Assembly (NCBI GenBank): GCA_030867685.1
Contig: JAQOWU010000003.1
Span: 310,001 to 374,000, forward strand
From: Wickerhamiella versatilis
Lineage: Eukaryota
Length of the DNA: 64,000 bases
Direction of reading: 5' to 3'
A program made the translations under genes and the position numbers. Positions 4,964 through 29,325 of this stretch are shown piece after piece. The number at the start of each line of letters is the position of its first letter. Position 1 is the first letter of the stretch. The notes beneath the pieces were generated by a model. That model was not told where the DNA came from, did no database searches, and saw only the letters and a list, made by a program, of their open reading frames with translations.

Positions 4964-6640
4964 ATGAGCGATGAGCCGGCTAACAAACGGTATCGAAGCT
5001 CTCGCTACCTCACCCTGTCTTGTGAACGCTGCTTTACCATCAAGAAGAAATGTGACCGAGAAGTTCCCTGTGGAAGATGCGTCAAGGCCCACAAGGAATG
5101 CAGGTACACATACCCCGGGACCCAGGCAGTCCAAAATAGCTCTTCTGACCCATTGCATACCCCTTCATACTTATTGCAGAAACTGAACATGTCCGTACGC
5201 CTAGCTGTACAAAACTTTGATCAGGGCGAGGATCCCAGCGCCGTGTTACAGCGTCTGAAAAAAAGCTACTCAGGCATCGGTTCTGATCACCAGGCCCACG
5301 GGTACCAGGCCACACCACTAAAGAACCTTCCTGAGAGGAGTGAGGCTGCTCAGTTTGCCCGAAGCTATTTTGAGAATCAGTATGTATGGACGCCATTTCT
5401 CGACATTAGGGCCTGGTTCCAGGCTTTTGATACCGCATACGAGCCAGAAACCACTCTAACTACCCATGAAGCATTCCAGGTGTATATGGTACTGGCCATA
5501 GGTGCCCTTGTCCGTCCAACCAACTCGAATTCGGACTCAGACCCCCATGCTGATTGGTACAGGACGGCAATGGCTTTGGCATTGGGTGCCAAGGGAGCAT
5601 CCCCTCAGCAGCACGAAGCAATTGAGCGAGTAATACTGCAAGTTTCCTATGGCATTTTAAGTCCCCACAGTAGTCTATCTGACATGTGGACCATGGTGAA
5701 TACCGCGTTATGCCAAACTATGTCCTTGGGATACCACACCAAACATCACCCCAGTGTTGATCCTCATACTGCTGAATTGCACAAAAGAACTTTTTGGAGC
5801 CTCTACAATCTTGATCGATTGCTGTGCATGACCCTGGGCTTGCCCGCAAACGTGCAGGATGAGTACGTTGATGCGGAAATGCCCGAGGCTACTGAATATT
5901 TAGCAGACTATCCAGCAAGCAGCTGGCTTCCTGCCGTGGATCACATACCTTCCATCATTCGATTGAGTTATACCATGGGCTACATCAGTAGATGTGTGAA
6001 CACTCATGGAACGGACCTGATGGGTAATGTGAAACCCCCGCAGCTCACAGACCTCCTGATTATTGCCAATGAGTGGTTTGACAGCCTGAAGTCCCTGTCG
6101 AATCCCCCTTCCCCACTGCTTCAGCAGTTCGAGCTATATTATCACAACCTCATTGCGCTCAGCCTGCGACCCTCGCCATCCCATCCGGCAACACCGTCGG
6201 AACTTTTGGGATGGCTCCTCCATAGCGTGCACAAGAAAATCTCTATTTGCCATGATCTGCTGGTGAATGGCAAGGTGAGCTGGAATTGGGTATTCCTCTA
6301 CGGGACCATGCGAGCTGCGGTCGTGCTGCTATACATCCGCTTCAACAGCTCAATTGACACAAACATGGCTCTGTATCTTAACCTTATTTATGAGACGTTT
6401 GCAGCCTTTCCGGCCGACTGGCGAGTTGCTCACAACGCTGGTCGATGCATTGAGAAAATAACCGAGGAATTTGCGGCTGGCGACTGGTCCACGGCGGGGC
6501 AGGAAATTCTGGCGTTCCTAAGGGAATCACATGGCTCAGGAAGTGTCTACAACTCCGGACCTGATCTTCTTGGCAACTACGAAATGGTGACCAGTCTGCT
6601 GGCAGATTGGTTTGACCTTGTGAATGGTCTAGGTATTTAG
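4964..6640 (+). CDS. Zn(II)2Cys6 transcription factor with fungal MHR domain
   Basis: CERCFTIKKKCDREVPCGRCVKAHKEC binuclear cluster; MHR motif RTFWSLYNLDRLLCMTLGLP. Confidence 0.92.
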   Translation: MSDEPANKRYRSSRYLTLSCERCFTIKKKCDREVPCGRCVKAHKECRYTYPGTQAVQNSSSDPLHTPSYLLQKLNMSVRLAVQNFDQGEDPSAVLQRLKKSYSGIGSDHQAHGYQATPLKNLPERSEAAQFARSYFENQYVWTPFLDIRAWFQAFDTAYEPETTLTTHEAFQVYMVLAIGALVRPTNSNSDSDPHADWYRTAMALALGAKGASPQQHEAIERVILQVSYGILSPHSSLSDMWTMVNTALCQTMSLGYHTKHHPSVDPHTAELHKRTFWSLYNLDRLLCMTLGLPANVQDEYVDAEMPEATEYLADYPASSWLPAVDHIPSIIRLSYTMGYISRCVNTHGTDLMGNVKPPQLTDLLIIANEWFDSLKSLSNPPSPLLQQFELYYHNLIALSLRPSPSHPATPSELLGWLLHSVHKKISICHDLLVNGKVSWNWVFLYGTMRAAVVLLYIRFNSSIDTNMALYLNLIYETFAAFPADWRVAHNAGRCIEKITEEFAAGDWSTAGQEILAFLRESHGSGSVYNSGPDLLGNYEMVTSLLADWFDLVNGLGI

Positions 6641-9675: not shown

Positions 9676-11607
9676 ATGGTGATCGCCATGCGTTTTATAA
9701 CATTTCCAGCAGCCTTAGGATTAGCACTAGCGGGTTCTTCATCCATCAGGCCGTCCGCTGCGAATTGGTCGATTCCCGCGACTCCTACCTTCCAAAGTCA
9801 TAATACCACGGTGTTAACCCTTACGAGCACATCGGAAACAGTCTCGACTTTCACTTCATGGTCTTCTGAGACGCCATCTGAGTTGGTAATTACCGAAACC
9901 AGTTGGTCCCCAGGCCATCCCGTCGCCTACACGTCGATAGAATCCATTCCTGGATCAGTTTATCCCGTAGAGAGCGTGGAAACGTTTTCGAGCAGCGGGT
10001 CTGAGACGCCAGCTGCCACGACTTCCAGTGAAGGTTCAGGTAGTAACTCCGGTAATGGATCTGGCTCTGGCTCGGGTTCTGGGTCCAGCTCCGGCTCTGG
10101 CTCTGGTAGTGGATCCGGCTCTGGCTCGGGTTCTGGGTCCAGCTCTGGATCCGGCTCTGGCTCTGGCTCTGAGTCTGGATCCGGCTCTGGAAGTGGTTCG
10201 GGTAATGGCGGTACTGGCTCTGGTCAGGGTGGATCTGGCTCTGGCTCTGGCTCGGGTTCTGGTGAAGGTGGTTATGGAGGACAAAATAATAATGGAGGCG
10301 AAGTCGCGACTACCATAGAGTGGGAGTCTGCTCAGCCAACAGAATCACTGGTCACAGGTCATAGCTGGGCCTCTGGAAGCGAAGTAGTGTCAAAATTGAC
10401 GCTCACGATTCACTCTTCCGATGGTCCCATCTATCCCATAATTGGATCATCCACTTTGTTTCTACCAGCCACGACTACGATCACAATTGGGGAAGATTTA
10501 CGCCCAACTGGTACGGCATCTGCAACAAGTACAAGTACAAGCTCGTCACTCCCAACTGCGCACTCCAATAATGGGACCAGGTCCAGTTCAGCGCCCCGGA
10601 TATCTTCCCCACCATCGGCCTCCGCATCGTCATCTGCGCCTGCGTCGTCGACCCGTCCACCCGTTAGCTCGTGTGTCCCATTCCCATATGTTGGCCCTGG
10701 AATGAACGTAACAGAATTTAGACTTGAACAGGCACAGTGGACGATCGACCAAGAGCAAACCTCGCGAATAGATATTGAATACTATGCTGACTGTGAACCT
10801 CTCTACAGGACTGGTCAAATTATGGATGACCTTGACATAAATCTACCGAACAAGGCCAAGAAGTTCCCTGTAGACGGATACGTGAATGGCGAAGCAGTCT
10901 GGTTCACAGAAACACCCAACCGTACTAGAAGCGACCCAGTTATTCTGTATCTCCACGGAGGTGGTTATATGTGGGGATTGCTGCCAAACCAAATAGATAC
11001 CTTGAGAGAACTGAATGAACGAATCGACAACCCTCGTCTATCCTGGTTGATTGTTGATTACACGCTGACGAACAAGGAAAAGTTCCCTCAGCAATTCAAG
11101 GAAACCGTTAACACCTTCAACGAGTTGCTTAAAACGTCGGATAATATCATAATTTTCGCCGACTCGAACGGCTGTCACCTGGCCTTGCTCCTCTTGTGGC
11201 AAATGCACCACGCACTGAACTATGAGATTGCCCCAATTCCTAAGAATAATGCAACTAGGGCGATTGCTCTTGCTTCCCCATGGACAGACTACACTGGTTA
11301 CGAACTTGTACTATGGGTATACGCAGCGGGAATAGATATCTTTAGCCAAAACTGGCAATTCCCAACCTATAACATGGCTCAGCATTCGGACCCAGCCTGG
11401 AGTGAAATTTTCCCTAAAGAGGTGTTACTTGGGTACGGCCAGGATGATAGTGTGGTCAATACATCTCAATCTATCATCAATATGGCGGGGTTGAGACCTG
11501 ACCAGTATTACGTGGAGCCAAATGGACAACATGATGAAATGGTTGTCAAGGGCAATGAGACAGTTATTGAAAAATTCGCAACGTTCTTGTCGAAGGTGGC
11601 TGCTTAG
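9676..11607 (+). CDS. Secreted alpha/beta-hydrolase (Say1/HSL-like esterase) with Ser/Thr- and Gly-Ser-rich N-terminal half
   Basis: Signal peptide, ~300 aa low-complexity stalk, then [23 protein letters not shown] nucleophile elbow, ASPW, GQHD. Confidence 0.85.
10033..10265 (+). repeat. Coding Gly-Ser repeat (GGCTCT units) with a 54-bp higher-order duplication
   Basis: GGATC(T/C)GGCTCTGGCTCGGGTTCTGGGTCCAGCTC recurs at 10057 and 10111. Confidence 0.9.
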
Positions 11608-13751: not shown

Positions 13752-15516
13752 TCATTTCTTTGATCTGCGATTCTTGAACCACAGATAAACGGGATCCGTC
13801 TTGAATGCCCACTCATGCGAATCAAAGATTAATGCCATTTCTTCCAGGGACTTACCATGAGTTTCCGGGAAGCAAATAAAGATATGAATCATAGAAACGA
13901 ATCCGAAAACGGCGAAAATCACATACATCTTCCAGGTGATGTTAATGAATCCTGGCGGCGTTGCGAGACTGATGGCAAAATTAAACAGCCAATTCGATGC
14001 ACTGCCCCAACCGTTTCCCAGTGATCGCTGACTTGGAGGGAAAATTTCCGACAAATAGGTCCAGGGAATAGGTCCAGGGAATAGGTGCCCATGAAATACC
14101 ATAAACTCCGAAGAAGATCATCGTGAACGCAATTGCTGCCTTACTTCCGGCCTTACCTCTCTGGCTATCCTGAGGCATCTGGATACGAACCGTGGGATCC
14201 GACGCCACGCCATGCGGAGCGGGCTCGCCAACTGCACCCAATATCGCTGCAAGAATAATCATGCAGGACATCATACCAAATGAACCAAGAAGGAATGTCC
14301 ACCGCCTTGACCAGCGATCCAGCCAAAATACCGTTGGCAGCGTCATGCCGATAAATATTGCGTAAATTAAGACTGAAAACCGGAAAACATCGTCATGACG
14401 GCCGCTCATATCAAATAGCGAAGTGGTGTAGAAAAGAACGATTCCTGAACCCAATAGTTGCTGGTAGGCTTGTGCAGACAACGCACTGAACGTGCGGCCA
14501 AAACTAACGCCTTTCCACATTGCAAGCACACTAGTCTTCTCCGAAGACTCCTTAATGATCGTCTGCTTGTACTCCAGCAGCTCTGTTTGAACCCGCTGCG
14601 ACTCCATATCCTGGCCACGCAGGAAGACCAAAATTTCCTGAGCCCTGTCCCAGTATCCAATTGTACCCAGCCATCTGGGAGATTCTGGTAGCATCAACGA
14701 ACCAATCCACATGATTCCACCTGGAATCATCTCAAGGCCCCACGCTAGCCTCATTCCTGTCCAATGGTTGCCATTCTGAATCTTGGAGCAACCGTACGCG
14801 ATAACATACATGACCAGCATGCCAATGTCGACCGCCAATTGGAAGCATGCAGTGAGACGACCCCGAATTTCACTGGGACTCAATTCTGCAAGATAAAGGG
14901 GTACATTAGATGAAGCAATACCGACACTGGCACCCATAATCAACCGGCCCCATACCAGCGAGGCCCGGTTGATGCAGGAGCACTGGATGGCACAACCTAC
15001 AAGCCAGGTTAGACCACAGACTTGCATCATAATATTACGACCGAGCAAGCCAGCAATACCACTGGAAATCATTGAGCCAATAAAGGCGCCGCCTGGCATG
15101 GCACTGGAAATACCACCCTGGTCGACCGCATTCACTGTCTTGCCGTCAGGACCATCGTAACCGAATGCTGCATTATAGTCGTCATTACCTATAAATGGAG
15201 ACATGTTTGTGCACGCAAAGCCAAATAATAGCCCACCCATTGTGGATATTGCTGCAATAATATAGGGGTTTCGAATTTTCCAAGGGCAGGAAACGAACCG
15301 GAATGGGCTGTAATCATAAAGTCGTGAATCTTTTGGCTTTGGAAGCTGACTGTCAATGTTGGATTGGAGTTTGAAGTCGAGCTCCTTTGGATGGGCCTCG
15401 TGCACAGACATAACTGACGCTGTGGGGGTCCTCACAATCTCGTCATCGTTAGTCGAGACAGTAGATGATCTCTCCATCCCCGCACTGCCGGGGAGATAAT
15501 CCTCTTTCTCTTTCAT
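13752..15516 (-). pseudogene. HGT1-like sugar porter (MFS), frameshifted by a 13-bp tandem duplication; 583 aa if repaired
   Basis: ORF 13981..15516 has sugar-porter motifs (GGLLFGF, LAELSP..IRG, PESPRWL, QQLLG, DRWSRR). ORF 13752..14102 carries the C-terminus (YLSEIFP, NWLFNF, PETHGKSLEEM). Removing one AATAGGTCCAGGG copy gives continuous GISWAPIPWTYLSEIFP. Confidence 0.9.
14054..14086. repeat. 13-bp tandem duplication causing the frameshift
   Basis: AATAGGTCCAGGG at 14054-14066 and 14067-14079, followed by AATAGGT at 14080-14086. Confidence 0.95.
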
Positions 15517-16264
15517 TATCGTGTTTTATCAATCAACAATTAGGTGAGTTCCTGAGCCAAAATCACAATTTATGTCATTTGTGGGTGGTAATCCGCGGGT
15601 ACGAGATAGGTTAGGGTTATACTGCCTTGTCGTTCGTTCGCTGGTACTTAACAAACATGCTCTGATTTACCCAGTTATGATACGAATATTCTTGTAGTGA
15701 AAGAATGTTGAAGTTGCCAGCGTATTTTCCCGAGTCGGAATATTGCCGTGCATGCCCTTAAAATTACTAAGCCAAGCTCATGCATTATAAGATTTGAGTT
15801 TACTATCACATACATTTTGCCTTGATTGAGTTAAAAAAGTTCCGTAAAAATAACCAAATAAAACCAATAAGCAACCATATAAACTTACGCAGTCTTCGAA
15901 ATTTCTCTTACAGCGAGAATCTAAGCTTCGTAGGCAGCCTCTCGTCCAGCGCCGTGCGCTCGGCTGACTAACAACACCTCCGATATCTATACGAGCATCG
16001 TCGTTTTGTGGAGTGGTAGGTGGGGTAAATGCAGAGATATGTGGTAGAGGGTTTTGGATAGTTCGTGATTTAGAAGTTGTTTAAGTGAAACTAAGCCCAG
16101 AAATAAGTCTTCACTAGTAACAATAACGTCAAATATTTCAGTGCCTAAAGCCTGGAGACCGGAAGATGCTAACCCCCTAGTAAAGCTTGGATATATATTA
16201 CAGTTGCCAATAGTGATATAGCATTTTATTTGAGAGCAGAAAAAATTATAGCGCTACTACTAGC

Positions 16265-17716
16265 CTAGGACTTAAAGTAATTAGATTTTGCTTTGAGGTA
16301 ATTCTGGAATACGTCCTTCACAGTACTAGGGGCCAATTCACGGTCTGTTGGCAAATCCCATTTTGGAAGGTGTCCCAACAGGATCCAAGCAGCTTGAACG
16401 GCACCGCCTCTGGCAACATACTCACCTGGAGTGGGGACAACAATGGGTGCTTCCTCGAAAACCTTGGCAGCACACTCCTGGATTGCGGGACTTGCAGCAG
16501 CACCACCAATTAATAGAATCCGCTTAATCTGTGTTCCAGGCAACTCGCGGCGGATGGCCTCTAGACCATCTGCCATGGAGCATACAACACCCTCGATAAA
16601 TGCCCGTGCTATATTGGGGCGAGTTGCATTATATAGGTCAATGTTCTGCAGTGATCCTTTTGCGTAAGGTAGATTCGGAGTACGCTCACCCTGGAAGTAT
16701 GGGATCAGCACCAGTCCACCAGCGCCGGGCTGGGCCTCCCTGAAAAGCTTGTCAAGCCCATCGAAGTCAACATCGAGAATTCTGCATGCTGCATCAATGC
16801 ACCGTGCTGCGTTAAGGGTACAAATTAAAGGCAGTTGTTGCCCAGTACAGTCACAGAATCCGCATACGGTTCCAGTGGGATCCGCTACATGTTGTGGTGA
16901 TGGCGTGAATACTGTACCACTTGTCCCAATAGATATAATAACATCACCTGCATGGGCTTGTAGCCCAATTGCACCTCCTGCATTGTCACCAGCACCGGGT
17001 CCCACGAGGATTCCTGCTGGAGTTACACCGGCTTTTTCGTCCCATCTGAGCACACGGGGTAGCGTTATCTCACCTATGTCATTCGACCCGGCCTCTCGAG
17101 CTGTCTTTCCGAATGCGAACTTGAACATGTCATAATCGTACTTATCTGTAACACTGGACCAGTACGCAGTCCCGGATGCCTCACTGCGATCGGTCGTTAA
17201 TGCTTCAAAGTCCGGACCACGCGGGCTTGTGGCAGCCGGACCGTATCCCAGAATCCTCCAGGTCAAATAGTCGTGGGGCAGGCATACTGCACATACCTCA
17301 GCCGCATTTTCAGGCTCATGGGTCTTGAGCCAACGAAGCTTTGAGGCCGTAAAACTTGTTACGGGTACAATTCCAATTCTCTTAGCATATGTATCTGCAC
17401 CTGCCTCTTGCACGAGGTCTCGGGCTGCCTCTGCGCTTTTTGTGTCATTCCACAGAAGGGCCGGACGGACGACGTTACCCTCTTTATTTAGAGCCACCAT
17501 GCCATGTTGTTGACCACCAACGCTTATTGCCTTGACATCATGAAGTCCACCTGCATTTTCTACAGCGGTTTGGAATGCCTTCCACCATACCTCAGGCGGA
17601 CATTCAGTACCTTCGGGATGTTGACACTTGCCGAACCTTACCAGCTTTCCAGTTTCTGCATCAACTATGAGCACCTTGCATGCTTGTGTAGAGGTATCAA
17701 CTCCTGCTACCAGCAT
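16265..17716 (-). CDS. xylB: Xylulokinase, bacterial XylB type (FGGY family)
   Basis: LVAGVDTSTQACK, ISVGGQQHGMV, RPALLWNDT, SFTASKLRWL..HEPENAA, LPHDYLTWR, TDRSEASGT, GAGDNA, SIGTSG, PYFQGERTPNLP. This is bacterial XylB architecture, unlike fungal Xks1. Confidence 0.9.
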   Translation of the reverse strand: MLVAGVDTSTQACKVLIVDAETGKLVRFGKCQHPEGTECPPEVWWKAFQTAVENAGGLHDVKAISVGGQQHGMVALNKEGNVVRPALLWNDTKSAEAARDLVQEAGADTYAKRIGIVPVTSFTASKLRWLKTHEPENAAEVCAVCLPHDYLTWRILGYGPAATSPRGPDFEALTTDRSEASGTAYWSSVTDKYDYDMFKFAFGKTAREAGSNDIGEITLPRVLRWDEKAGVTPAGILVGPGAGDNAGGAIGLQAHAGDVIISIGTSGTVFTPSPQHVADPTGTVCGFCDCTGQQLPLICTLNAARCIDAACRILDVDFDGLDKLFREAQPGAGGLVLIPYFQGERTPNLPYAKGSLQNIDLYNATRPNIARAFIEGVVCSMADGLEAIRRELPGTQIKRILLIGGAAASPAIQECAAKVFEEAPIVVPTPGEYVARGGAVQAAWILLGHLPKWDLPTDRELAPSTVKDVFQNYLKAKSNYFKS

Positions 17717-18695
17717 TATCGTATATTTCTTGAGATTACTTCATGTGGAAAAACTCCACGCTATTTAAAATGCACTCGAATGATATGGATTGAGTAATCA
17801 CATACATATTGGACGTAGTATTCCCCATATTTACGAGGAGTTCAGGCATCCTGTACCATCTAATTTTTGTTAGCAATGGCATTAATATTTATTTTCCAGT
17901 AGTATTTACCCTGATGGTTTTGCCGTAGATCCGCCATTTCCAGGTGGTTCGTTTCGCTCGGTTCATAGGTCATCAGTGAAATTCTATAAAGACTATTGCG
18001 GCACTTTAAGGCGGGAGTTTCAAAGTGGAAAAAAAATTAATACTCTCCAAAAATATCTGGAATGCTACGGACATACCAATAGCTAGTTAAATGGCCAGCG
18101 CCCCAGTCTTTGGGGGAGACGTGCCGTGTCCATGATTACTAACATCGCGCCGATTTCTAGTGATAAAGTAGGGTTTTAAATAGTAGTCGAAATGAGATTA
18201 GGCTCGATGGAGAAGTATAGTATTATAGGTAATAAATGTACGCGTCAGAGTTTGGACTTAGTATGTGATCTGCAGAAACGGCTATCTGCACTAGGCAATA
18301 GGCACGCATTCCGACCCCGGGGAATTCGCATGCGGGGTTTTAGTCAGTCTGGGTACCGGGAGCGCATGCTCATCAGGGGACCGGGATGCCGCCGAGTATA
18401 GTAGGGTTTTCTCGGGCCCGCGTGCATACACCTAAGCTAGCATCTTGGCTACTCAGTTGAGGGTGTTCCAATAATAATATAGCCTTATGCTAGAAATGCA
18501 TATAATCAAGACATACCACGAATCTATCCACAATATCCGGGGTACCTAGATTCTCCACAATTATTTACCCTACCCCGCAATATTGTTTTTACGAGATATT
18601 CCACTACCCGGATAAACAGGAACACCTAAAGCTTCTAATTACCCTGATATATAAGGTGGGAGATTCGGCTTAGCAAAGACTCCAGCGAACATAAG

Positions 18696-19766
18696 ATGAC
18701 AGTGACAACAGCAGAAAATATCGGCGTTCAGACGAACCCAGCTAATGATTTGTGGGTGGGACCAGTCCCAGCCCCCGGCACGCCAAAGCCCGATGAGGTT
18801 ACGGTACACGTTAGAGCCTGTGGTATCTGCGGATCCGACGTTCATTTCTGGAAGGAGGGTCGTATTGGACCCATGGTCGTCCAAGGAGAGCAAGTTCTTG
18901 GCCACGAGGCAAGTGGCGAGGTTGTAGAGGTCGGCAGTAACGTCAAAGATCTCAAACCCGGTGACAGGGTGGCATTTGAGCCTGGTGAGGCATGCATGGC
19001 CTGTGAGACCTGTAAGAGCGGTGCCTACAACGGTTGTGACAAGGTTTTGTTCAAGTCCACGCCACCCGTGCCTGGTGAGCTGCGCAGGTTCATGAACCAT
19101 CCCGCCAGCCTCTGCTACAAGCTTGGTGATCTCTCGTATGCAGAGGGTGCATTGCTGGAGCCCTTGAGTGTTGCCATTGCCGGTGCGGACCTTTCAGGCC
19201 TTAAATTTGGCGACTCTGTGTTTGTTGCCGGTGCCGGCCCCATTGGTATTCTTTCTGCCCTACTTTCGGTGGCTGCTGGTGCGACCGCTGTTGTAATTAG
19301 TGATCTCAATGAAAAGAGACTGGACTTCGTGAGAAAGCTTAACCCTAAAATCAAGACTCTTACGATTCAAAAGGGCTGGGATTCCCAGCGTGTGGCTGAC
19401 GAGGCCAAGAAGTTAGCAGGTGGTTTGAGGTTCAAGAGGACCCTGGAGTGCACGGGTATTGAATCCTCGGTTGCTGCAGGAATCCTCGCTTTGGACTTCC
19501 GTGGAACGATCCAGTTGCTTGGTGTGGGTAAAGACGAGATCAAGATCCCATTCATGTACGTCAGCGTAAACGAGATAACAATTCGTGGACTTTACCGTTA
19601 CACTAACACCTGGCCAAAGGCCATCCGTATGGTCGAGTCTGGGTTGATTGACTTGAAGCCCTTAATCTCTTACGAGGTACCAATTGAGGAGGGTGATCGT
19701 GCTTTCGAGATTGTGACCGACCCTAGTAAGGGCTCGATTAAGGTTCTGATCGTCGATAGGTCATGA
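18696..19766 (+). CDS. LAD1: L-arabinitol 4-dehydrogenase (Zn-dependent polyol dehydrogenase)
   Basis: NIGVQTNPANDLW LAD-type N-terminus, GICGSDVHFW, IGPM, LGHE, four-Cys structural Zn, GAGPIG, LECTG, YRYTNTWP. Confidence 0.85.
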   Translation: MTVTTAENIGVQTNPANDLWVGPVPAPGTPKPDEVTVHVRACGICGSDVHFWKEGRIGPMVVQGEQVLGHEASGEVVEVGSNVKDLKPGDRVAFEPGEACMACETCKSGAYNGCDKVLFKSTPPVPGELRRFMNHPASLCYKLGDLSYAEGALLEPLSVAIAGADLSGLKFGDSVFVAGAGPIGILSALLSVAAGATAVVISDLNEKRLDFVRKLNPKIKTLTIQKGWDSQRVADEAKKLAGGLRFKRTLECTGIESSVAAGILALDFRGTIQLLGVGKDEIKIPFMYVSVNEITIRGLYRYTNTWPKAIRMVESGLIDLKPLISYEVPIEEGDRAFEIVTDPSKGSIKVLIVDRS

Positions 19767-20466
19767 TTGTCTAATATATGCTGCACTATGAGTAAAAGTA
19801 ATAATGTAGTCGAGATGATAATGTAAATCGCTTTCGGATTGTAAAACTAAAGACATGATCCGACAAGGTGCACTCTGGTTGATGCATCAAAGATCTTACG
19901 CAATATTAAAGCAAAAAATACAGTGGAAAGTGGTGGAATGCACTATCTTGTTGAGTGTTCACTAATCAGCAAAGGCCTAAATAGTCGTCTCAATATTTTA
20001 TCCGTAGAGAAATCCATAGTTTTAGTAGTCCGCCAAAATTGTGGGATACATAAATAACCTTATCCTGTTATTTGCGATGTTTCACAAATATTTGGTGCCG
20101 TGCGTAGACTTATTACGTCGTTATATGCATCATACGTCGGATTCCCCGGATATGTTACTAATACAAGCGGAGTAAGACGAGGGGTACGTGGTGATGGCTT
20201 CCCCACCCGATAGGAGGGACACATCGAGCAGATCTTTAGAAATCTTAAGAAAAAAAGGGGATAAATTGAATAAATATAGGCATATACGAGAAATAACTCT
20301 GGCTCAGTCTAATTTTGTGGCTGACGTATTTATCGCCGGTCAAATGCTGATGCCGGTGCCGTGTGGGGATGATTAAGCCATAATGTAGGTATAAGAGAGG
20401 TACATCTTCTGGGTAGTTTATCGAAATTTGTTTTAAGACAAACCAAAAGAAACAGAAAATTTACAA

Positions 20467-21420
20467 ATGGGTGAAACAAAACTTGCACCGACCACTACGC
20501 TTAATACCGGCGTGAAGATGCCAATGATCGCTCTGGGTACCTGGCAATCAGGGCCTAAGGAGGTCGAGGAGGCCGTGTACTATGCTATAAAAAATGGCTA
20601 TCGGATGTTTGACACGGCAACCGACTACGCAAATGAGGAAGAGGTTGGTAATGGTATTAAAAAGGCCATCAAGGAGGGCCTTGTGAAGCGGGAAGATCTA
20701 TTTATTCAGACAAAACTTGACGTCTTCGACTTCCATCGGGTACCTGATGGATTTAATGAGTCTCTGGAAAAGCTGGGAACGGGCTATATTGACTCCTATC
20801 TCATGCATTGGCCGTTTGGATTGATGCCAGGTGATCGCAGTGACTACGGCCTGCAGCATGCCCCCATTGACGGCAGCATTACTTTTAATGAGGTATGGGC
20901 AGAAATGGAGAAGCTTCCTACTGACAAGTGCCGCTCTATCGGTGTCTCCAACTTTACGATTGCTAACATCAAGAGATTGCTGAAGACTGCGAAAGTAATT
21001 CCCACAATTAACCAGGTCGAGCTTCATGTGAACCTGCCGCAGCAAAAACTCGTTGACTTCCTTCACTCTGGCGACTATGGGGTTAACACTGGTGGAAAGA
21101 AGATCTTGCCTCAGGCCTACTCGCCATTGGCACATGGTACTGCTGGTCTGAATAACCCAATAATTAAGAAGATTGCCGCGAAGCATGGGGCAACCACTGC
21201 CTCTGTTCTTCTCTCATGGAATATCCAGCGTGGTGTGCCTCTCTGTGTAAAGTCGACTACTCCAGATAAGATTTCGTCCAATCTCAATTTGATCAAACTA
21301 GATGCCGAGGATTTTGCTGATATCAAGGAAATTTCGAAGGATCCTAAGAATCTAATTAGGTTCTCGCAGTTCCTCAGCAACCGTATGGATGTGTTTGACA
21401 GTAATGCCGATTCGTTTTAG
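20467..21420 (+). CDS. Aldo-keto reductase (Gcy1/Ypr1-like; candidate aldose/L-arabinose reductase)
   Basis: LGTWQS, catalytic tetrad in FDTATDY / TKL / MHWP, SIGVSNF, NQVELH, AYSPL, VKS. Confidence 0.88.
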   Translation: MGETKLAPTTTLNTGVKMPMIALGTWQSGPKEVEEAVYYAIKNGYRMFDTATDYANEEEVGNGIKKAIKEGLVKREDLFIQTKLDVFDFHRVPDGFNESLEKLGTGYIDSYLMHWPFGLMPGDRSDYGLQHAPIDGSITFNEVWAEMEKLPTDKCRSIGVSNFTIANIKRLLKTAKVIPTINQVELHVNLPQQKLVDFLHSGDYGVNTGGKKILPQAYSPLAHGTAGLNNPIIKKIAAKHGATTASVLLSWNIQRGVPLCVKSTTPDKISSNLNLIKLDAEDFADIKEISKDPKNLIRFSQFLSNRMDVFDSNADSF

Positions 21421-21745
21421 GCTTAAGTAACCATTTTAGTTTAGCTTAGGATACGTTAACGATTTTGACACTACATTCTGTGAACCAGGAAAGGTGATCA
21501 GTTACCGAGAGCAACGCTCTGTCATCGATATGGACAATGCCCGTCAATTGTTATTGTATACTTTAAAATGGCCCTAGCACGTGTCTAGACATAGTAGATC
21601 ATCTTAGGCATACACAGGAGATCATAACGCTATATACCTGTCCACTCATTACTTCATAGTTTGAAACTTCTGCATTAAGGAACGGAGATATGCACTTAGA
21701 GACATGAACTAGTATCGTGTATTGCTAATTCAGGTTCAAAGCTTT

Positions 21746-22801
21746 TTAAGAATTGACGATCATCGTCTTAATAGAATGCTTGCTGGGATCCGCTGCAATC
21801 TTGAAAGCCTCATCGCCCTCCTCAAGCTTGATCTTATAAGACACAAGAGGACTAATGTCAATCAATTTCTCTCTCAGGATTCGAATGCCCTTTGGCCAAG
21901 TGTTAGTGTAACGGAACAACCCCTTGACCGTGACTTCATTGAAGCATTGATAATTGAAGGGAACGTCAATCACGTCCTTACTGGAAACACCAAGGACTTC
22001 GACGGTACCTCGGAAATCAGATGCCAAAATGCCAGCACAGACAGACTGCGCAAATCCCGTGCACTCAAGAACGCGCTTCAACTTGCCACCTGCAGCTTTC
22101 TCCACCTTTTCGGCAACGCTTTCAGGGGATTCCTTGGGGTCAACAAGAACAGTACGGATACCAGGGATCATTTTCTTGGCGAACTCAAGCTTTGGTCCAG
22201 ATATGTCAGTCATAACAAGTGGAACAGCTCCTGCCGCGCGAGCCAACATGGCAGTAAGAGTGCCGATCGGACCTGCGCCAGCAACAAGGGTTGGCTCACC
22301 TAGCCTGAGTCCAGATTGCTCAATTCCCGCGAGACCAACACTCATGGGTTCCAACATGGCACCCTCCTCGTATGTCAAGCCATCGATCTTATAGCACAGC
22401 TTAGCTGGATGGGTCCAGTATTTCCGCAACATACCTTGGTAAGGTGGGGTACTCTTGAAAATTACATGGGGGCAGCCATTGTAGGCACCAGACTTGCATC
22501 TCTCGCACTGACCACAGGTTTCCTCTGGCTCTACAGCTACCCTATCACCAACTTTCAATGAGGTCACATTACTTCCAAGCTTTACGACATCACCAGCAGC
22601 TTCATGACCCAGTGCTAAGGGCTCACGTACCCAATAAGGCCCGCTGTGACCTTCTTTCCAGAAATGGACGTCAGACCCACAAATACCACATGCACGCATT
22701 TTGATCAACACTTCATCAGGACCAGGCTCCTCGGGTGCAGCTGCATCTCCGACATAAATGTCTCTTTTCGGGCTCGTATAAACGCCAATGTTCTTTTCCA
22801 T
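21746..22801 (-). CDS. Second LAD-family Zn polyol dehydrogenase; candidate xylitol/sorbitol dehydrogenase
   Basis: 351 aa from ATG 22801 (MEKNIGVYTSP); GICGSDVHFWKEG, LGHE, CKSGAYNGC, FKSTPP, GAGPIG, GLFRYTNTWPK. Close paralog of 18696..19766. Confidence 0.85.
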   Translation of the reverse strand: MEKNIGVYTSPKRDIYVGDAAAPEEPGPDEVLIKMRACGICGSDVHFWKEGHSGPYWVREPLALGHEAAGDVVKLGSNVTSLKVGDRVAVEPEETCGQCERCKSGAYNGCPHVIFKSTPPYQGMLRKYWTHPAKLCYKIDGLTYEEGAMLEPMSVGLAGIEQSGLRLGEPTLVAGAGPIGTLTAMLARAAGAVPLVMTDISGPKLEFAKKMIPGIRTVLVDPKESPESVAEKVEKAAGGKLKRVLECTGFAQSVCAGILASDFRGTVEVLGVSSKDVIDVPFNYQCFNEVTVKGLFRYTNTWPKGIRILREKLIDISPLVSYKIKLEEGDEAFKIAADPSKHSIKTMIVNS

Positions 22802-23823
22802 GATTGAATGTGTAAATTGTATAATCTGTGGAAGCTTTCTTATAGGGCTAGAGCTCACACCTGATTAATCATCACGATCGCATTGTATCCGGGGTTTGCT
22901 CCCGGACCCCGAAACGCCCCCAACTTCAGAGCGTGACTTGGTTTTTTTTGCACCACGTAATAGCTTCATGTCCATTTTACAGTTAGGAAAACTCAATAGT
23001 GTTTACCTTAGACTAGTAGTTTGGAAATCTTTTCGTGACCTATGATGAGGTAAGTGCGTAGAAATTAATCCAGGTATTGTTTCGGATTATCATGCTGATT
23101 GTTGCGCCAAGTCGGTAGCGATTTTAAAGCTCATTTCATAAAAGTATAACAAATATTAGTCTATTTGTTAGCAGTAGAGCTGTTTTAAAGAAAGTATTCA
23201 CCCCTATTTTTTTAGCTTCACGCCTTATCCCCCGGTGCCGCACGTTACCCGTCCCCACAGGGAACTGTTATTAATTGCATCCGACCAATGCGACGTGACG
23301 TGGCAAAATTGAGAGCATTAGGTTCTTATTATCGTAGTTGATTTACAGTTGCCTTAAATTAATCGGATTAACACCCCTGTAGTGTCCATTTAAGGATCTG
23401 TACACTGTGACGTTCTTGTTCACTCACAGCTGAGAAGCAACAATCACGTATTGCATCATTTTGAAACAGCTATCGATTATAATAAATTTCGAATTGCTTG
23501 AGTAGCTAGTGAACCGCATTTTCCCCGGCCTGTTGACATTCACTTGGTGACTCAGGCTTTACGTACGAACGGCACCAATCTGAACCTGAGAAACTCACAA
23601 GATAACGCCCACTACCGCATGAAATTTTCCCCGGTATATTTGAATCTGAAACATTTTCTTCCCAGCCTTTGTTCAGTCCGCCTGGCCGTGAAAATCTAGA
23701 GTGACCCCACATACAGGTTTAGGTTCTGATCACATCGTATCGCTGATATTAATAATTACAGTCGGAAATCTTTATTTATTTATATATAGCCTCTGAGCAG
23801 AAATATTCATTAATTATAATAAT

Positions 23824-24666
23824 ATGCCTGTAAACTTTGCTGGTGTCAAATATCCTGCAGAAGTTCCTGCTTTTGCCACGGATCCTAATGTTACAACCCC
23901 AAGTTTGTTCAGTTTAAAGGGCAAAGTCTCAAGTATTACGGGTGCCTCACAAGGTATTGGGTATGCTGTTGCAGAGGCCTTTGCCCAAGCAGGCTCTGAC
24001 TTAGCCCTTTGGTATATCGGCAAACAGAATGATCCATCTGAAAAGGCAGAATTCCTGTCGAGTAAGTATGGTGTAAAAGTGAAGTGTTATGATGGTGATG
24101 TGACCAACGTTGAAAATGTTAAGTCGATTATTGAACGACAGGTGGAGGATTTCGGAAAAATTGATGTGTTCGTTGCCAACGCGGGTATTGCATGGACCAG
24201 TGGATCACTTGTGGACAACGATGATGATAGTGCGTGGCAGAAGGTTATGTCTGTAAATGTTGATGGCGTTTACAATTGCGCTAAATATATTGGAAGGCAG
24301 TTTAAGAAGCAGGGAAGTGGATCTCTTATTTTCACTGCTTCGATTTCAGCTCACATTGTCAATCAGCCCCAGAAGCAGGCCTGCTACAATGCCTCCAAAG
24401 CATGTGTACTTCATTTAATGAAGTGTCTGGCAGTTGAGTATGCTCCGTTTGCCCGTGTTAACTCAGTTAGCCCAGGGTACATTTTAACAGATATCATTCA
24501 TTTCGCACCTGAGGATATGCTTAACAACTGGTGGTCACAAGTTCCTCTTGGACGCGGTGGAACTCCCAAAGAACTCACAGGTGCATATCTGTATCTTGCC
24601 TCTGATGCATCGTCATTTACCACGGGCACCGACATTAAGGTCGCCGGTGGTATTTCTCTAGCTTAA
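23824..24666 (+). CDS. SOU1: SDR carbonyl reductase, SOU1/L-xylulose reductase-like
   Basis: LFSLKGKV..ITGASQGIG, FVANAGIAW, SISAHIVNQPQKQACYNASK, ARVNSVSPGYILT, GAYLYLASDAS. Follows Candida Sou1/Sou2 and fungal LXR/mannitol dehydrogenase SDRs. Confidence 0.82.
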   Translation: MPVNFAGVKYPAEVPAFATDPNVTTPSLFSLKGKVSSITGASQGIGYAVAEAFAQAGSDLALWYIGKQNDPSEKAEFLSSKYGVKVKCYDGDVTNVENVKSIIERQVEDFGKIDVFVANAGIAWTSGSLVDNDDDSAWQKVMSVNVDGVYNCAKYIGRQFKKQGSGSLIFTASISAHIVNQPQKQACYNASKACVLHLMKCLAVEYAPFARVNSVSPGYILTDIIHFAPEDMLNNWWSQVPLGRGGTPKELTGAYLYLASDASSFTTGTDIKVAGGISLA

Positions 24667-24870: not shown

Positions 24871-26865
24871 TTACCAAATCTGGTATTCTTCAAAGTACTC
24901 TATCCGTCTGTTTGGAAAGTGCGATATAGCTCTCGCCACTGAACTCCGAGCTTCATCATTGAAACCTGGAGGACCACAGCACGACACAGCAAGGGATGAT
25001 GTATTGGACGCAAAGTCTTCAATTATCTGATCCAAGTTAGGCCGACCATGATTCGTGTGAACACCAGGTAAATCAAAAGAGTCCGATTCAAGCCCTGTCA
25101 TATACAACTGGACATGGAGCCCTTTGAGACGAATCATTTGTTCTCGGAAAGCTTCCAGTATATCTAAATCCCGAGCAACAATAACAACAAATATTGTTTC
25201 AGTGGGCTTCGTCAGCGATAATTCATATGCCTCAGATAAAGGTCCTGGAAGGCCACTTCCCCCACAAAGGAACAAAGTCTGATCATAATCCAAAAGAGAT
25301 TTTGGGCTTCCATAAGGTCCTTCTACAAAAACTGGAATAGTCATGGTTCCGCCCTGTAGTTTTAGTCTCTGAAGTATCACACCAGTAGCACCTTCCTTGG
25401 CTTTGATAACAAAATAGAGTTCATCACCCATGTCAGTGAAGGTGAATGGATGCGATTGCCAGAACGTTGATGCTGTAAGAAAATACAGGAACACATACTG
25501 CCCAGGAACTGAATTCCACGCACGATATTTTGGCTTTGGTACCTTGACAGTAAAGAGATCAGAACCCGCTTGCTGGAGTACAGCATGGGCAAGCCCGAAT
25601 TTCGAAATGTATATGATTCGAAGAGACCGCTCAATGGCCCAGATTATACATGATGAATAAATAAACCAAAGCCATCCAAACTTTTTGGCGTGTATCCAAC
25701 AGAGATAGAAAAATACCATTGCAAATGCAATATGAAGATATAGAAATACCTCGTAGCATTTTTTCCTTAATGTACCTAAGGAAAGGATACATATCACGCA
25801 AGACAAGTATGTAGCGTATACTCCTCGACGCCAGAAAAGCTCTTGACTTTCTTTGACGATCTTTCCTGTCAATTGGCCGTGGATCTCGAAAGCCACGCTA
25901 TGGACCACTGCATCAAAGACCATAATCCTGCTAATCCACTTATGAAATACCACGACTGTGGAGAATTTAATGCCAGCCAGGAGTTCAAGTATGTTACTAC
26001 GCGTACCAAGGGCCATTAGTAGTGGAAACTGCCAAAACGCTACAATTCCGCTGCGCACACCAAATACCCTCAAGTATTGAAATCCAACTGGGTCTAAAGT
26101 GCCTTTCTCATCAATATCATATCCATAAAAAAGCGCCAATGTGTGCAGCACGGAATAAATAGCAATTAAGAAAATCTCAAACCTAGTTGGGACAAATCCG
26201 CTTAATGTGGAGCGCGCTGTATGTGTCTTGTGGAAAGGTGGTATTTCAATAGATGCTCGTGCAATGTTGACAGGCTTTGCACGGAATAAAAATCGGTTCA
26301 CTGATTTCAGCTGGGAAACAAGCAGCAAGACAAGGCTGATGGCACAAAAGTAATATAATATGGAAGAGGCGCTATTACTTGACGCAAAATTGGCAAAATT
26401 TTTTCTGACCGCACTAACAATGTTTTGGCGAGTCTCTGTGTTGAGTTCCACGGGGTACGAGATGGATTGGGTGAGATTCAGTTTTGAGATGTCGACTATA
26501 TAGTTGGTCGCATTCTCAAGCGAGCTATTGAAATCTTTTTGGGATAGCTGTGCCAACCCTCCCCCGGCCATCGCACAACACATATTGATAGTGTTCAAAG
26601 TCTTTGCTAGCATCTTACCATACTCCCGCTCATCGTAATTTTCCACCAATATTTCGTGGATGCAGGTAGTCCATGAGCCTAATGCCGGTTCGTAGTTACA
26701 GATGTCAGCATATGATCCCCGAACGTCCGGCTCAAAACGCCAAGGAAGAGAATTTAACTGTATTCCACAACCCAGCGGAGCCGCCCATTCCCAGCTAGCC
26801 CACGGCTTAGCCTCACTGATGCCCAACAGCTGGGCTATAATGAGGGTAAAGCAAAGAACGAACAT
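24871..26865 (-). CDS. Ferric/cupric reductase (FRE family)
   Basis: Signal peptide, Cys-containing N-domain, heme His (FHKWISR, VHS, LHI, WIH), QSHPFT, VEGPYG, GGSGLPG, CCGPPGF, EEYQIW end. Confidence 0.92.
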   Translation of the reverse strand: MFVLCFTLIIAQLLGISEAKPWASWEWAAPLGCGIQLNSLPWRFEPDVRGSYADICNYEPALGSWTTCIHEILVENYDEREYGKMLAKTLNTINMCCAMAGGGLAQLSQKDFNSSLENATNYIVDISKLNLTQSISYPVELNTETRQNIVSAVRKNFANFASSNSASSILYYFCAISLVLLLVSQLKSVNRFLFRAKPVNIARASIEIPPFHKTHTARSTLSGFVPTRFEIFLIAIYSVLHTLALFYGYDIDEKGTLDPVGFQYLRVFGVRSGIVAFWQFPLLMALGTRSNILELLAGIKFSTVVVFHKWISRIMVFDAVVHSVAFEIHGQLTGKIVKESQELFWRRGVYATYLSCVICILSLGTLRKKCYEVFLYLHIAFAMVFFYLCWIHAKKFGWLWFIYSSCIIWAIERSLRIIYISKFGLAHAVLQQAGSDLFTVKVPKPKYRAWNSVPGQYVFLYFLTASTFWQSHPFTFTDMGDELYFVIKAKEGATGVILQRLKLQGGTMTIPVFVEGPYGSPKSLLDYDQTLFLCGGSGLPGPLSEAYELSLTKPTETIFVVIVARDLDILEAFREQMIRLKGLHVQLYMTGLESDSFDLPGVHTNHGRPNLDQIIEDFASNTSSLAVSCCGPPGFNDEARSSVARAISHFPNRRIEYFEEYQIW

Positions 26866-27465: not shown

Positions 27466-29325
27466 TTAGCATCCAAATTTTTCGCAGGCAGACACATTGC
27501 GGTGACCCTGTAGGTTCTGTCCTGCAAGATTAAAGAAATCAGCGGTATTTCCTGCGGCATTTCCCTCATATGGTACGCCGCTTAAGGAACATGAGTCAAA
27601 TGCATTCTGAGGTACAAGCTGATTAGAGTTTCTGATCTGCTTCGGTGCCTCCACAAATTGCGAAGCCATACCTGCCGACAGATGCCAGCTTAGGTGGCAG
27701 TGGAAGACCCAGACACCAGGATTATCTGCCCGGAAGCGAATAACCATATAAGAATAAGGATTGACATATGCCACGTCTCGCCGCACAGGATATTGCGGGA
27801 ATGTATGATTTGCTTTGGTAGAGTTGAAGAACACAGGAGTTCCCGAGAACAAGGTGCTTGGATTTGTGAAATCTGGGCCACGGGCCACGACTTGAAAATT
27901 ATGACCGTGGAGATGCAAGCCGTGAATCTGGGGCCCTACGTTATTGATCACAACCTGAACAACCTCATTATGCTTCAGGACTGTGGTTTGCGTATTATTA
28001 CCATAGATGGTCGCATTCTCTGCCGTCTCGTCATCAGGTGCGCTCAGAACAGTATAGAGAGCCGGTACCTTCGGAGCAGTATAGGCGATATTGTTGAAGC
28101 CGGTGTAGGTGACATTGTCAGGCATAAGTCTGAAGAAATTAATGTCATAAACAACTTCCCGGTCCGGTTTAGGCAAGAGTTTCTGGTGATCATACGGAAC
28201 CAGTTCCATGTCATCAAAATAATCAATGTTGGTAGAAATATATTTTTCCAGGGAGTACTTCGTGCGATTTATGGGGGCAGTCTGGTATATCGAAGTGTTG
28301 TTCAAGTACTCAAAATCGCTCTCAGATACATTTCCCGTGTACAGGAATGCGGTCATGTTCTGCTGAGGGAAGGTATTCGGGGTGAAAGCTGTACGATATA
28401 CCTCAGCCATTTGATATACTGCTGGTGTTTTTTCTGGGATTTTCACTAAAAGCGAATAGCGCTGGCCAGGAACCATCATAATGGAGTTTGTTTCGGCCGG
28501 TTCTGTGTATACACCATCAACTTCAACAATCGTGAAGTTGAGGCCGGGGATGTAAAAAATGAAGTTTGCCAGAGCCGAAACACTTGCAATACGGAGTCTA
28601 TATGTCTTCCCGGGCTGTACCTGCCACTTGGGTGATAGGGTATCATTAAACAATATCGCATTTGGCATGGGTGATGCTTCCTGTAAATTCTGAGGCACCA
28701 ACACCTGAGTATCTGTCAAGTTCTCAGCAAGATCATCATACCAATCACTAAAGGTGAACGAAAGCTCATCATCCACATCATGTGCAAAGTAAGCATCGTC
28801 ATTATCAACTAAAAACAATTGGCGGTATCCATCTGGATAAAAGTTTTCCACATGCGTATGATACCAGTAGGTCCCAGGCTGATTGACGACGAAGTCATAG
28901 AAGAACGTGACACCAGGCGCAGTTGGACACTGAGTAAAATATGGACTTCCATCCATTTGGTTTGTGCCATTATTAAATATACCATGGAAATGGATCGTGG
29001 AATTGTGATGAGGGTTTGTGAGGTTATTATAAACTCTAAGAACAACTCGATCACCTTTGTTCACACGAATGACAGGCATAGGCCATTCGTCATTTATAGC
29101 CGGAACGACGCGCGGCCGCAATCCATCTGGTTTTAGCGTCTTCCATGATACCGTCCAATCAAAAAAATGGGTGATAGGCCGAAGGCTTGCTGATGTTGAA
29201 GAGTTTTTCGAGCTTGAAGCATTCTGAAGACTATTTGCTGGGGCAAAATCTCTTGGTGCAGCAGCTCCCTCTGCAAGAGCAAGAAATGCCGCTACCAGTG
29301 TAACCAAAAACTGAATGGGCGTCAT
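27466..29325 (-). CDS. Secreted multicopper oxidase, Fet3-related, without C-terminal TM anchor
   Basis: 619 aa from ATG 29325 with signal peptide; Cu motifs IHFHG, YWYHTH, HGLHLHGH, HCHLSWHLSAGM; Fet3-like GNAAGN near the end. Confidence 0.9.
   Translation of the reverse strand: MTPIQFLVTLVAAFLALAEGAAAPRDFAPANSLQNASSSKNSSTSASLRPITHFFDWTVSWKTLKPDGLRPRVVPAINDEWPMPVIRVNKGDRVVLRVYNNLTNPHHNSTIHFHGIFNNGTNQMDGSPYFTQCPTAPGVTFFYDFVVNQPGTYWYHTHVENFYPDGYRQLFLVDNDDAYFAHDVDDELSFTFSDWYDDLAENLTDTQVLVPQNLQEASPMPNAILFNDTLSPKWQVQPGKTYRLRIASVSALANFIFYIPGLNFTIVEVDGVYTEPAETNSIMMVPGQRYSLLVKIPEKTPAVYQMAEVYRTAFTPNTFPQQNMTAFLYTGNVSESDFEYLNNTSIYQTAPINRTKYSLEKYISTNIDYFDDMELVPYDHQKLLPKPDREVVYDINFFRLMPDNVTYTGFNNIAYTAPKVPALYTVLSAPDDETAENATIYGNNTQTTVLKHNEVVQVVINNVGPQIHGLHLHGHNFQVVARGPDFTNPSTLFSGTPVFFNSTKANHTFPQYPVRRDVAYVNPYSYMVIRFRADNPGVWVFHCHLSWHLSAGMASQFVEAPKQIRNSNQLVPQNAFDSCSLSGVPYEGNAAGNTADFFNLAGQNLQGHRNVSACEKFGC

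Follow-up and report, generated by a model that had tools for sequence, protein, structure and literature searches.

A putative pentitol/L-arabinose catabolic gene cluster with an actinobacterial-type xylulokinase in the yeast Wickerhamiella versatilis

Six adjacent genes and a frameshifted sugar porter

The locus described here occupies positions 13752-24666 of a 64,000-nucleotide stretch of the Wickerhamiella versatilis genome (assembly GCA_030867685.1, contig JAQOWU010000003.1, positions 310,001 to 374,000 of the forward strand), which is called the window below and to which all coordinates refer. It comprises six adjacent genes whose predicted products, taken together, may form a catabolic cluster for pentitols and possibly L-arabinose. 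At its left end, a gene for a sugar porter of the major facilitator superfamily (MFS) lies in a broken frame on the minus strand (13752..15516; Pfam Sugar_tr in two frames), next to a minus-strand gene for a XylB-type xylulokinase of 483 aa (16265..17716; Pfam FGGY_N and FGGY_C). The third gene, LAD1, is on the plus strand (18696..19766; ADH_N and ADH_zinc_N) and encodes a 356 aa NAD-type, zinc-dependent polyol dehydrogenase of the MDR type (medium-chain dehydrogenase/reductase) that belongs to the L-arabinitol 4-dehydrogenase (LAD) family. It is followed by a plus-strand gene for a 317 aa aldo-keto reductase (AKR) similar to GCY1/YPR1 (20467..21420; Aldo_ket_red 1.1e-39, profile positions 2-290 of 291), a candidate aldose (L-arabinose) reductase, and by a minus-strand gene for a second LAD-family dehydrogenase of 351 aa, LAD2 (21746..22801; ADH_N and ADH_zinc_N), a candidate for the enzyme converting xylitol to D-xylulose. 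The sixth gene (23824..24666, plus strand; adh_short_C2 6e-60, profile positions 1-235 of 236) encodes a short-chain dehydrogenase/reductase (SDR) of 280 aa of the SOU1/carbonyl-reductase type, which is a candidate L-xylulose reductase, the rival assignment being a ketose/mannitol reductase.

The kinase and LAD1 genes form one divergent pair (979-bp spacer), and the LAD2 and SDR genes another (1022-bp spacer). No separate open reading frame (ORF) of at least 100 aa was found between the six genes in the ORF listing of positions 13752-24666, the other frames being only antisense to the genes or overlapping inside them, and the whole window contains no tRNA genes. The original prediction, made from the DNA letters and ORF translations, of six adjacent genes with nothing unrelated between them and with two divergent pairs is thus confirmed by the ORF listing and Pfam, and the enzyme classes that it assigned agree with Pfam and with the homologues found. 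Five of the six are intact, matching their profiles over the full length and retaining the catalytic motifs.

The exception is the porter. Its N-terminal ORF (13981-15516, 511 aa) matches Sugar_tr profile positions 2-382 (9.5e-69), while the C-terminal part lies in another frame (13752-14102) matching profile positions 362-452 (6.5e-21). A perfect 13-bp tandem duplication at 14054..14086 (period 13, 2.5 copies, 100% matches, score 66 in Tandem Repeats Finder) shifts the frame within the conserved PIPWTY..SEIFP stretch, and frame 1 ends at a stop at 13981. When aligned with the closest library representatives, P0371 (51% identity, 607 aa) and P0372 (42%, 582 aa), frame 1 diverges after PIPWTY, and frame 2 aligns to their C-termini. 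An intron as the cause of the break is ruled out, because a perfect 13-bp duplication sits inside the conserved motif. The porter in this assembly is therefore a frameshifted allele that lacks about the last hundred residues, and the claim that the pathway is 'complete', uptake included, is not supported here. In an exact look-up in a collection of 15 billion proteins, neither porter ORF translation was present, and those of the SDR, AKR, and LAD2 were; the absence may reflect a eukaryotic gene caller bridging the break with a false intron, and it is no proof of an intact allele elsewhere. Only 87 of 1.84 billion representatives are related to the porter at E<=1e-30, which indicates a small and divergent branch within the Sugar_tr family. 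Seven of its ten best full-length matches are named, all of them generically ('general substrate transporter', 'high affinity glucose transporter'), at 33-37% identity. A second, intact sugar porter gene of the window (42035-43597, plus strand, 520 aa) encodes a product only 22% identical to the cluster porter.

Origins of the enzymes

The xylulokinase is of bacterial descent, as had been predicted, and its relatives point to Actinomycetota. Among solved structures, 3i8b ('Xylulose kinase') matched best, at 4.5e-129, and the E. coli-type kinase 2itm matched at 3.7e-46. The best 120 rows of a search of 5.8 billion clusters consist of the cluster of the kinase itself, two relatives at 78% identity, and proteins at 53-61% that are named xylulokinases, including those of Leifsonia at about 60%. 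All rows among these 120 that name an organism are from Actinomycetota (or from an 'unidentified organism'), the sources being Leifsonia, Arthrobacter, Gryllotalpicola, Mycetocola, Paramicrobacterium, Nakamurella, and a Microbacteriaceae bacterium. In a tree of 36 rows, the kinase and its two relatives at 78% form a group with support 100 that lies apart from the named bacterial groups. Its GC3 of 0.43 is inside the range of the neighbour genes, and the transfer is therefore old; judged by its homologues and composition, the kinase is a fully ameliorated xenolog from Actinomycetota. The identity of an L-xylulokinase (LyxK) was ruled out, as no NCBIfam family besides XylB reached 1e-20. By class (XylB-type FGGY), the kinase provides the D-xylulokinase that the L-arabinose route needs, its descent being bacterial and not that of fungal XKS1/XkiA. 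Two long-branched xylulokinases, P0039 (57%) and P0102 (54%), join the yeast kinases in the tree with support 99, and one of them has the odd amino acid make-up of the yeast kinases; they could represent the same transfer in other eukaryotes.

A transfer of this kind has already been tabulated for the clade of Wickerhamiella and Starmerella (W/S clade). Five species of the clade are credited with a horizontally acquired 'Xylulokinase, Actinobacteria, K00854, FGGY' in supplement 5 of Goncalves et al. (eLife 2018; PMC5897096). Supplement 12 of a later study (Commun Biol 2026; PMC13376923) scores xylB as 'HGT Bacteria / Replacement' in both of its Wickerhamiella annotations, 'Replacement' meaning that the species has no native orthologue. 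The tabulated gene resembles that of the window in being an actinobacterial XylB-type kinase in a yeast, recorded as replacing a lost function and, in one species, standing beside a native LAD gene; the two differ in that the portions of the tables covered do not contain the six-gene arrangement. We infer that the window kinase is the same xenolog, orthology included. Rows for xylitol dehydrogenase (K05351), K00008, or xylose reductase (K17743) are absent from the covered part of supplement 12, in which K17742 (SOU1) and K18097 (GCY1) occur six times each. Xylulokinase, arabitol, xylitol, arabinose, and pentose catabolism go unmentioned in the covered portions of the main texts of the W/S-clade papers ('xylulokinase' has no occurrence in that of eLife 2018).

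Both zinc-dependent dehydrogenases have the L-arabinitol 4-dehydrogenase of Neurospora crassa (3m6i) as the best solved structure, LAD1 at 5.1e-116 vs. 4.6e-55 for xylitol dehydrogenase 7y9p, and LAD2 at 5.8e-100 vs. 3.9e-53. They are 56% identical to each other. LAD1 has two relatives at 81% identity and is about 50-53% identical to the named LADs of Blastobotrys, Sugiyamaella, Trichomonascus, and many Pezizomycotina, while LAD2 has a relative (P0125) at 85%. A tree was built from 43 of 120 hits, with 77 left out; it comprises every named yeast sequence, the nearest of the unnamed sequences, and a range of named sequences from Pezizomycotina. In it, the LAD1 group is sister to the LAD2 group (SH-aLRT 95) within a nine-row yeast clade (98), and the LADs of Pezizomycotina form a separate clade with support 100. 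This placement rules out a Pezizomycotina origin of the two genes. Because they form sister groups inside the yeast clade, each with relatives at 81-85%, the tree indicates that the LAD duplication is native and predates the split from the relatives at about 80% identity, and the predicted local duplication is thereby supported. The structure matches and the tree provide, at the level of homology, the L-arabinitol 4-dehydrogenase needed by the route. The GICGSD, GHE, and LEP stretches and the Cys-rich loop, as well as ..TDI.. in LAD2 and ..SDL.. in LAD1, align with 3m6i, as expected of NAD-type LADs; from the 3m6i literature, we take these to be the zinc-ligand stretches and the acidic residue that ends the second Rossmann strand and marks the NAD type. 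The Phe or Tyr residue after GICGSDVH, which was tried as a marker of LADs vs. xylitol dehydrogenases, does not separate them: 3m6i and 7y9p both have Phe, and only sorbitol dehydrogenases have Tyr.

The original prediction assigned the reduction of L-arabinose to the AKR, which is not of the XYL1/LarA type. Its solved structures and homologues place it near GCY1/YPR1: the best structures are those of plant AKR4 enzymes (5.7e-54), with yeast xylose reductases at about 1e-47, and the homologues are found at 97% and then at 57% identity, the first named one being a 'glycerol 2-dehydrogenase (NADP+)' of Starmerella bacillaris (53%). Asp49, Tyr54, Lys83, and His114 are at the positions expected of the catalytic tetrad, which is presumably formed by these residues. 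The SDR matches best the structures named 'Carbonyl Reductase' (7dld, 7dlm, and 3ctm, about 3e-90) and then NADP-dependent mannitol dehydrogenases (7e-67), in agreement with the SOU1-type assignment made earlier. It has TGASQGIG and the Ser173/Tyr188/Lys192 pattern. Its neighbours in Protein Atlas are 'Carbonyl reductase' and 'sorbitol utilization protein SOU2' of Ascomycota; for both the SDR and the AKR, this resource gave only generic family neighbours. The L-xylulose reductase step of Aspergillus niger is itself carried out by distant, non-orthologous SDRs and is not fully accounted for yet (PMC8601170), and yeasts of the W/S clade have paralogous SDR mannitol dehydrogenases, one of them without an assigned role (PMC6838020).

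Linkage in relatives and a shared upstream 9-mer

The clusters formed at 90% identity by the SDR, the AKR, and LAD2 each include proteins of assemblies with longest contigs of 57783, 42618, and 1348231 bases, which is consistent with the linkage of these three genes in about three close assemblies. The kinase relative P0003 (78%) and the LAD1 relative P0122 (81%) likewise come with the same longest contig, of 66821 bases. In one of the two Wickerhamiella annotations of PMC13376923, xylB is numbered immediately before a 'Native' L-arabinitol 4-dehydrogenase, which is followed by unrelated genes; in the other, the neighbours of xylB are unrelated. Beyond close relatives, the linkage appears to hold only for the xylB-LAD pair, which recurs in one Wickerhamiella table. 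Because xylB and LAD alone are adjacent in that table and none of the genes in the other, this pair appears to be the older core, with the arrangement of six genes seemingly lineage-specific. A metagenome scan with LAD1 yielded ten loci, none of them above 55% identity, and the two longest (L008 and L002) showed no comparable cluster, which is uninformative on close relatives. In L008, the neighbours of the LAD gene are unrelated (Velvet, ACBP, MFS, and PAP2), and in L002, the SDR fragments beside it share only 21-24% identity with the SDR of the cluster.

The k-mer comparison of the four cluster promoters (15517-16264, 17717-18695, 19767-20466, and 22802-23823) revealed a G+C-rich 9-mer, TATCCGGGG, upstream of three of the genes. 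It is present at 18534-18542 (plus strand), 162 bp upstream of the LAD1 ATG in the kinase/LAD1 divergent promoter (17717..18695), at 20144..20152 (minus strand), 315 bp upstream of the AKR ATG, and, between the divergent LAD2 and SDR genes, at 22886..22894 (plus strand), 85 bp upstream of the LAD2 ATG. A copy with one mismatch is found at 18606-18614 (minus strand) in the kinase/LAD1 promoter, and a fourth exact copy is within an unrelated ORF. The four copies in the window compare with 0.30 expected, and none of 100 shuffles reached four. Both the motif and the G+C filter were chosen post hoc; of 500 control quartets taken from the other intergenic regions, only 6 share any G+C-rich 9-mer in three of four members. 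This distribution suggests a common regulation of LAD1, AKR, and LAD2 through TATCCGGGG, which we treat as a lead and not as a result. An A+T-rich 9-mer, AAATTTCGA, is also present in three of the four cluster promoters, which hold three of its five copies in the window. A gene for a Zn2Cys6 transcription factor (4964-6640, plus strand) is located 7 kb upstream of the cluster, with unrelated genes between, and is a candidate regulator for the CGG-containing TATCCGGGG. Published RNA-seq data for two Wickerhamiella species are from glucose media only (PMC13376923).

A possible pentitol/L-arabinose pathway and its alternatives

Among known pathways, only the L-arabinose route requires precisely the four oxidoreductase classes of the locus together with a xylulokinase (PMC8601170). 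We consider the locus, with a probability of roughly one half, to be a lineage-specific budding-yeast cluster for pentitol/L-arabinose catabolism that feeds D-xylulose-5-phosphate. In the proposed sequence of reactions, L-arabinose would be reduced to L-arabitol by the GCY1-type AKR with NADPH, L-arabitol would be oxidised to L-xylulose by one of the LAD paralogues with NAD+, and L-xylulose would be reduced to xylitol by the SOU1-type SDR. The other LAD paralogue would convert xylitol to D-xylulose in place of the missing XYL2-type enzyme, and the XylB kinase would phosphorylate the latter. LAD enzymes are known to convert xylitol to D-xylulose as well, as in the case of A. niger LadA and in Trichoderma reesei (PMC8601170). 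This makes it plausible, by analogy, that a LAD paralogue fills the xylitol dehydrogenase step, and because of this activity the divergent xylB-LAD pair, as the older core, would be sufficient alone for xylitol. The LAD duplicate, the AKR, and the SDR would have been added around this core, extending the route to L-arabitol and perhaps to L-arabinose. Provided that the class-based assignment of the steps is right, genes for successive steps are adjacent here, as they are in GAL-like clusters. In this scheme, all substrates, the way in which LAD1 and LAD2 share the work, and the co-regulation of the genes are predicted from sequence. Elsewhere in the window, a gene of the long-chain mannitol_dh family (49392-50879, plus strand) matches the profiles of fructuronate reductase and D-arabinitol 4-dehydrogenase DalD at about 304-311 bits, both below the cut-offs; if its product converts D-arabitol to D-xylulose, the XylB kinase, encoded 25 kb away, would receive substrate from it as well.

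The one-to-one mapping of genes onto steps proposed in the original prediction holds by enzyme class, but the AKR is GCY1-like, the porter is broken, and the specificities are deduced from the enzyme families; also, instead of the dedicated xylitol dehydrogenase that a 'complete' route would contain, the step would rest on a LAD paralogue. We consider the full mapping possible but doubtful. A number of further observations weigh against a pentitol/L-arabinose cluster. Besides being frameshifted, the porter gene has a promoter devoid of TATCCGGGG even when one mismatch is allowed. Two 9-mers are common to three of the four cluster promoters, a number that 14% of the control quartets reach, and the post hoc choice of the motif and filter counts on the same side. 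The kinase narrowly misses the cut-off of the XylB equivalog TIGR01312 (374.2 vs. 380.25 bits, profile positions 2-439 of 481). No XYL2/XdhA-type xylitol dehydrogenase gene was found in the cluster, both MDRs matching 7y9p far less well than 3m6i. The AKR is nearer to glycerol-dehydrogenase-type AKRs than to xylose or arabinose reductases, and no orthologue at about 80% was found among its homologues, whereas the kinase, LAD1, and LAD2 have relatives at 78-85%; this could mean that the AKR joined recently or that the relatives have lost it. The family of the SDR also includes fructose/mannitol and sorbose reductases, of which several copies are present in the W/S clade. The six-gene order is absent from both Wickerhamiella tables of PMC13376923, as far as these were covered, and in the annotation with the xylB-LAD adjacency, a SOU1-like 'L-xylulose reductase-related' gene is elsewhere amid unrelated genes. 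Finally, the whole window is rich in oxidoreductases and transporters, which weakens a naive argument from chance.

Some of these points would be accounted for if the locus contained only a two- or three-gene pentitol module, i.e., xylB with one or both LADs acting on xylitol or L-arabitol, in a loose 'polyol' neighbourhood in which the AKR and the SDR would take part in other interconversions of polyols and ketoses that are typical of the W/S clade, for instance between fructose and mannitol, sorbose and sorbitol, or glycerol and dihydroxyacetone. The recurrence of the xylB-LAD adjacency alone in the published Wickerhamiella table (PMC13376923), the lack of a close AKR orthologue in relatives that have the kinase and LADs, and the 'glycerol 2-dehydrogenase (NADP+)' as the nearest named AKR relative would be expected in such a case, and so would the match of the SDR to mannitol dehydrogenases (7e-67) in a clade with paralogous SDR mannitol dehydrogenases (PMC6838020). 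However, not only the two LAD genes but also the AKR gene have TATCCGGGG upstream, the SDR and LAD2 have a common divergent promoter, and the SDR, AKR, and LAD2 have matching longest contigs in three assemblies. The L-arabinose route, moreover, is alone in needing exactly these classes and a xylulokinase (PMC8601170), and we regard the restriction to a small module as unlikely.

A route for hexoses and hexitols would proceed from galactose through galactitol (AKR), L-xylo-3-hexulose (LAD), and D-sorbitol (SDR) to D-fructose (the second MDR), or, in a variant, from L-sorbose by a SOU1-type reductase, with the kinase as a bystander. The oxidoreductive galactose pathway of filamentous fungi uses the same enzyme classes, such a pathway is present in some yeasts with its genes still unidentified (PMC11067038), and the family name of the SDR is sorbose reductase. 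But the kinase is a XylB-type pentulokinase that is divergent with LAD1 and is numbered beside a LAD gene in another species (PMC13376923), Pfam revealed no hexokinase or ketohexokinase in the cluster, and the yeasts with an alternative galactose route are, in the covered portion of PMC11067038, Serinales and Ogataea and not members of the W/S clade; hence, a hexitol route seems improbable. Largely coincidental adjacency, in an accessory region that collects oxidoreductases, transporters, and xenologs, would fit the decay of the porter, the report that xenologs accumulate in particular low-expression regions (PMC13376923), and the content of the window outside the cluster, i.e., a further MDR, an SDR (bacterial-type equivalog), a mannitol_dh-family gene, a catalase-peroxidase, HIBADH-like and epimerase-like genes, and three more MFS-type or EamA-type transporters. 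It is difficult to reconcile with the two divergent pairs, the LAD duplicates kept about 2 kb apart, the common upstream 9-mer, the xylB-LAD numbering in another species, and the intact state of five of the six genes with their full-length profiles and catalytic motifs. Chance adjacency of these particular enzyme classes is very unlikely, and we consider a coincidental origin of the locus improbable.

Pentose pathway genes are scattered in Aspergillus and Trichoderma. The yeast catabolic gene clusters include GAL, DAL, and the L-rhamnose cluster LRA, and the dal operon of Klebsiella is a bacterial polyol operon that pairs a pentitol dehydrogenase with a xylulokinase. The xylB-LAD pair resembles dal-type operons in that a pentitol would be oxidised to xylulose, which would then be phosphorylated; it differs from them in the native fungal zinc-dependent MDR, the kinase alone being bacterial, and in that the genes are transcribed separately and not as an operon. 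The six-gene locus shares with the GAL, DAL, and LRA clusters and with the lactose/galactose cluster of Candida intermedia the adjacent, partly divergent genes for successive sugar steps, which in those clusters are sometimes accompanied by a transporter and an aldose reductase paralogue; the pathway is different, a bacterial xenolog is included, and there is no regulator gene inside. Compared with the LarA-LadA-LxrA/LxrB-XdhA-XkiA route of A. niger and that of T. reesei, the same five reaction classes are predicted, and a LAD shares the xylitol step there as well (PMC8601170), while here the genes are clustered, the reductase is GCY1-like and not LarA/XyrA-like, there is no XdhA-type enzyme, and bacterial XylB stands in the place of XkiA/XKS1.

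Yeast catabolic clusters as a kind, the chemistry of the pathway, the transfer of the kinase, and the xylB-LAD adjacency in a published table are already known. A search of full-text literature, with subscription journals and bioRxiv supplements outside it, found no description of a clustered L-arabinose/pentitol pathway in a yeast, and neither did it find, with subscription journals again outside it, an LAD duplication replacing xylitol dehydrogenase. The original remark that no description of such a cluster was known thus stands for the cluster as a whole and has to be qualified for its parts, as the kinase transfer is tabulated and the xylB-LAD numbering is legible in a published supplement. 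A more far-reaching scenario, which is tentative and rather unlikely, is that the ancestor of the clade lost XKS1, XYL1, and XYL2, and that one lineage rebuilt the L-arabinose/pentitol pathway as a single cluster, with xylB placed beside a native LAD, a LAD copy used as xylitol dehydrogenase, a recruited glycerol-dehydrogenase-type AKR and SOU1-type SDR, and one new cis-element. If true, this would be the first naturally occurring cluster for the L-arabinose route of fungi, and it would exemplify how a pathway is reassembled from native and bacterial parts. Should the reading as a pentitol/L-arabinose cluster hold, the locus would suggest that a LAD duplication can replace a lost xylitol dehydrogenase, would show a bacterial xenolog wired into a native eukaryotic pathway and cluster, extending the cases of alcohol fermentation, thiamine salvage, and siderophores in the W/S clade, and would offer a compact, intron-free five-enzyme L-arabinose/pentitol cassette useful for engineering pentose-using yeasts. 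If false, it would be an ordinary polyol-oxidoreductase neighbourhood around an already catalogued transfer.

The flanks of the cluster are unrelated to it according to Pfam. On the left, there is a gene for a Say1-like hydrolase (9676-11607, plus strand), whose product has a long Ser/Gly-rich (SGSGSG...) low-complexity N-terminal half ahead of the hydrolase domain, and on the right, genes for a ferric reductase (24871-26865) and a multicopper oxidase (27466-29325). Among the more distant genes, a minus-strand SDR gene of 259 aa (3769-4548) matches the whole profile NF009385 (PRK12744) with 435.9 bits vs. the 296-bit cut-off and is probably another bacterial xenolog, and the catalase-peroxidase (52158-54479, minus strand, 773 aa) is a bacterial-type KatG (TIGR00198 HPI, 993.5 bits vs. 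the cut-off of 770.25). Also on the minus strand of the window are three genes at 3-1439, 1799-2911, and 61377-62972, two of them Fringe-like (GT31) and one for a quinone oxidoreductase of the PIG3 type. In a Wickerhamiella table of PMC13376923, xylB is 4 genes away from a GT31 gene and 15 from a PIG3 quinone oxidoreductase gene marked 'HGT Bacteria', and the presence of GT31 and PIG3 genes near xylB in both may be a remnant of a shared neighbourhood.

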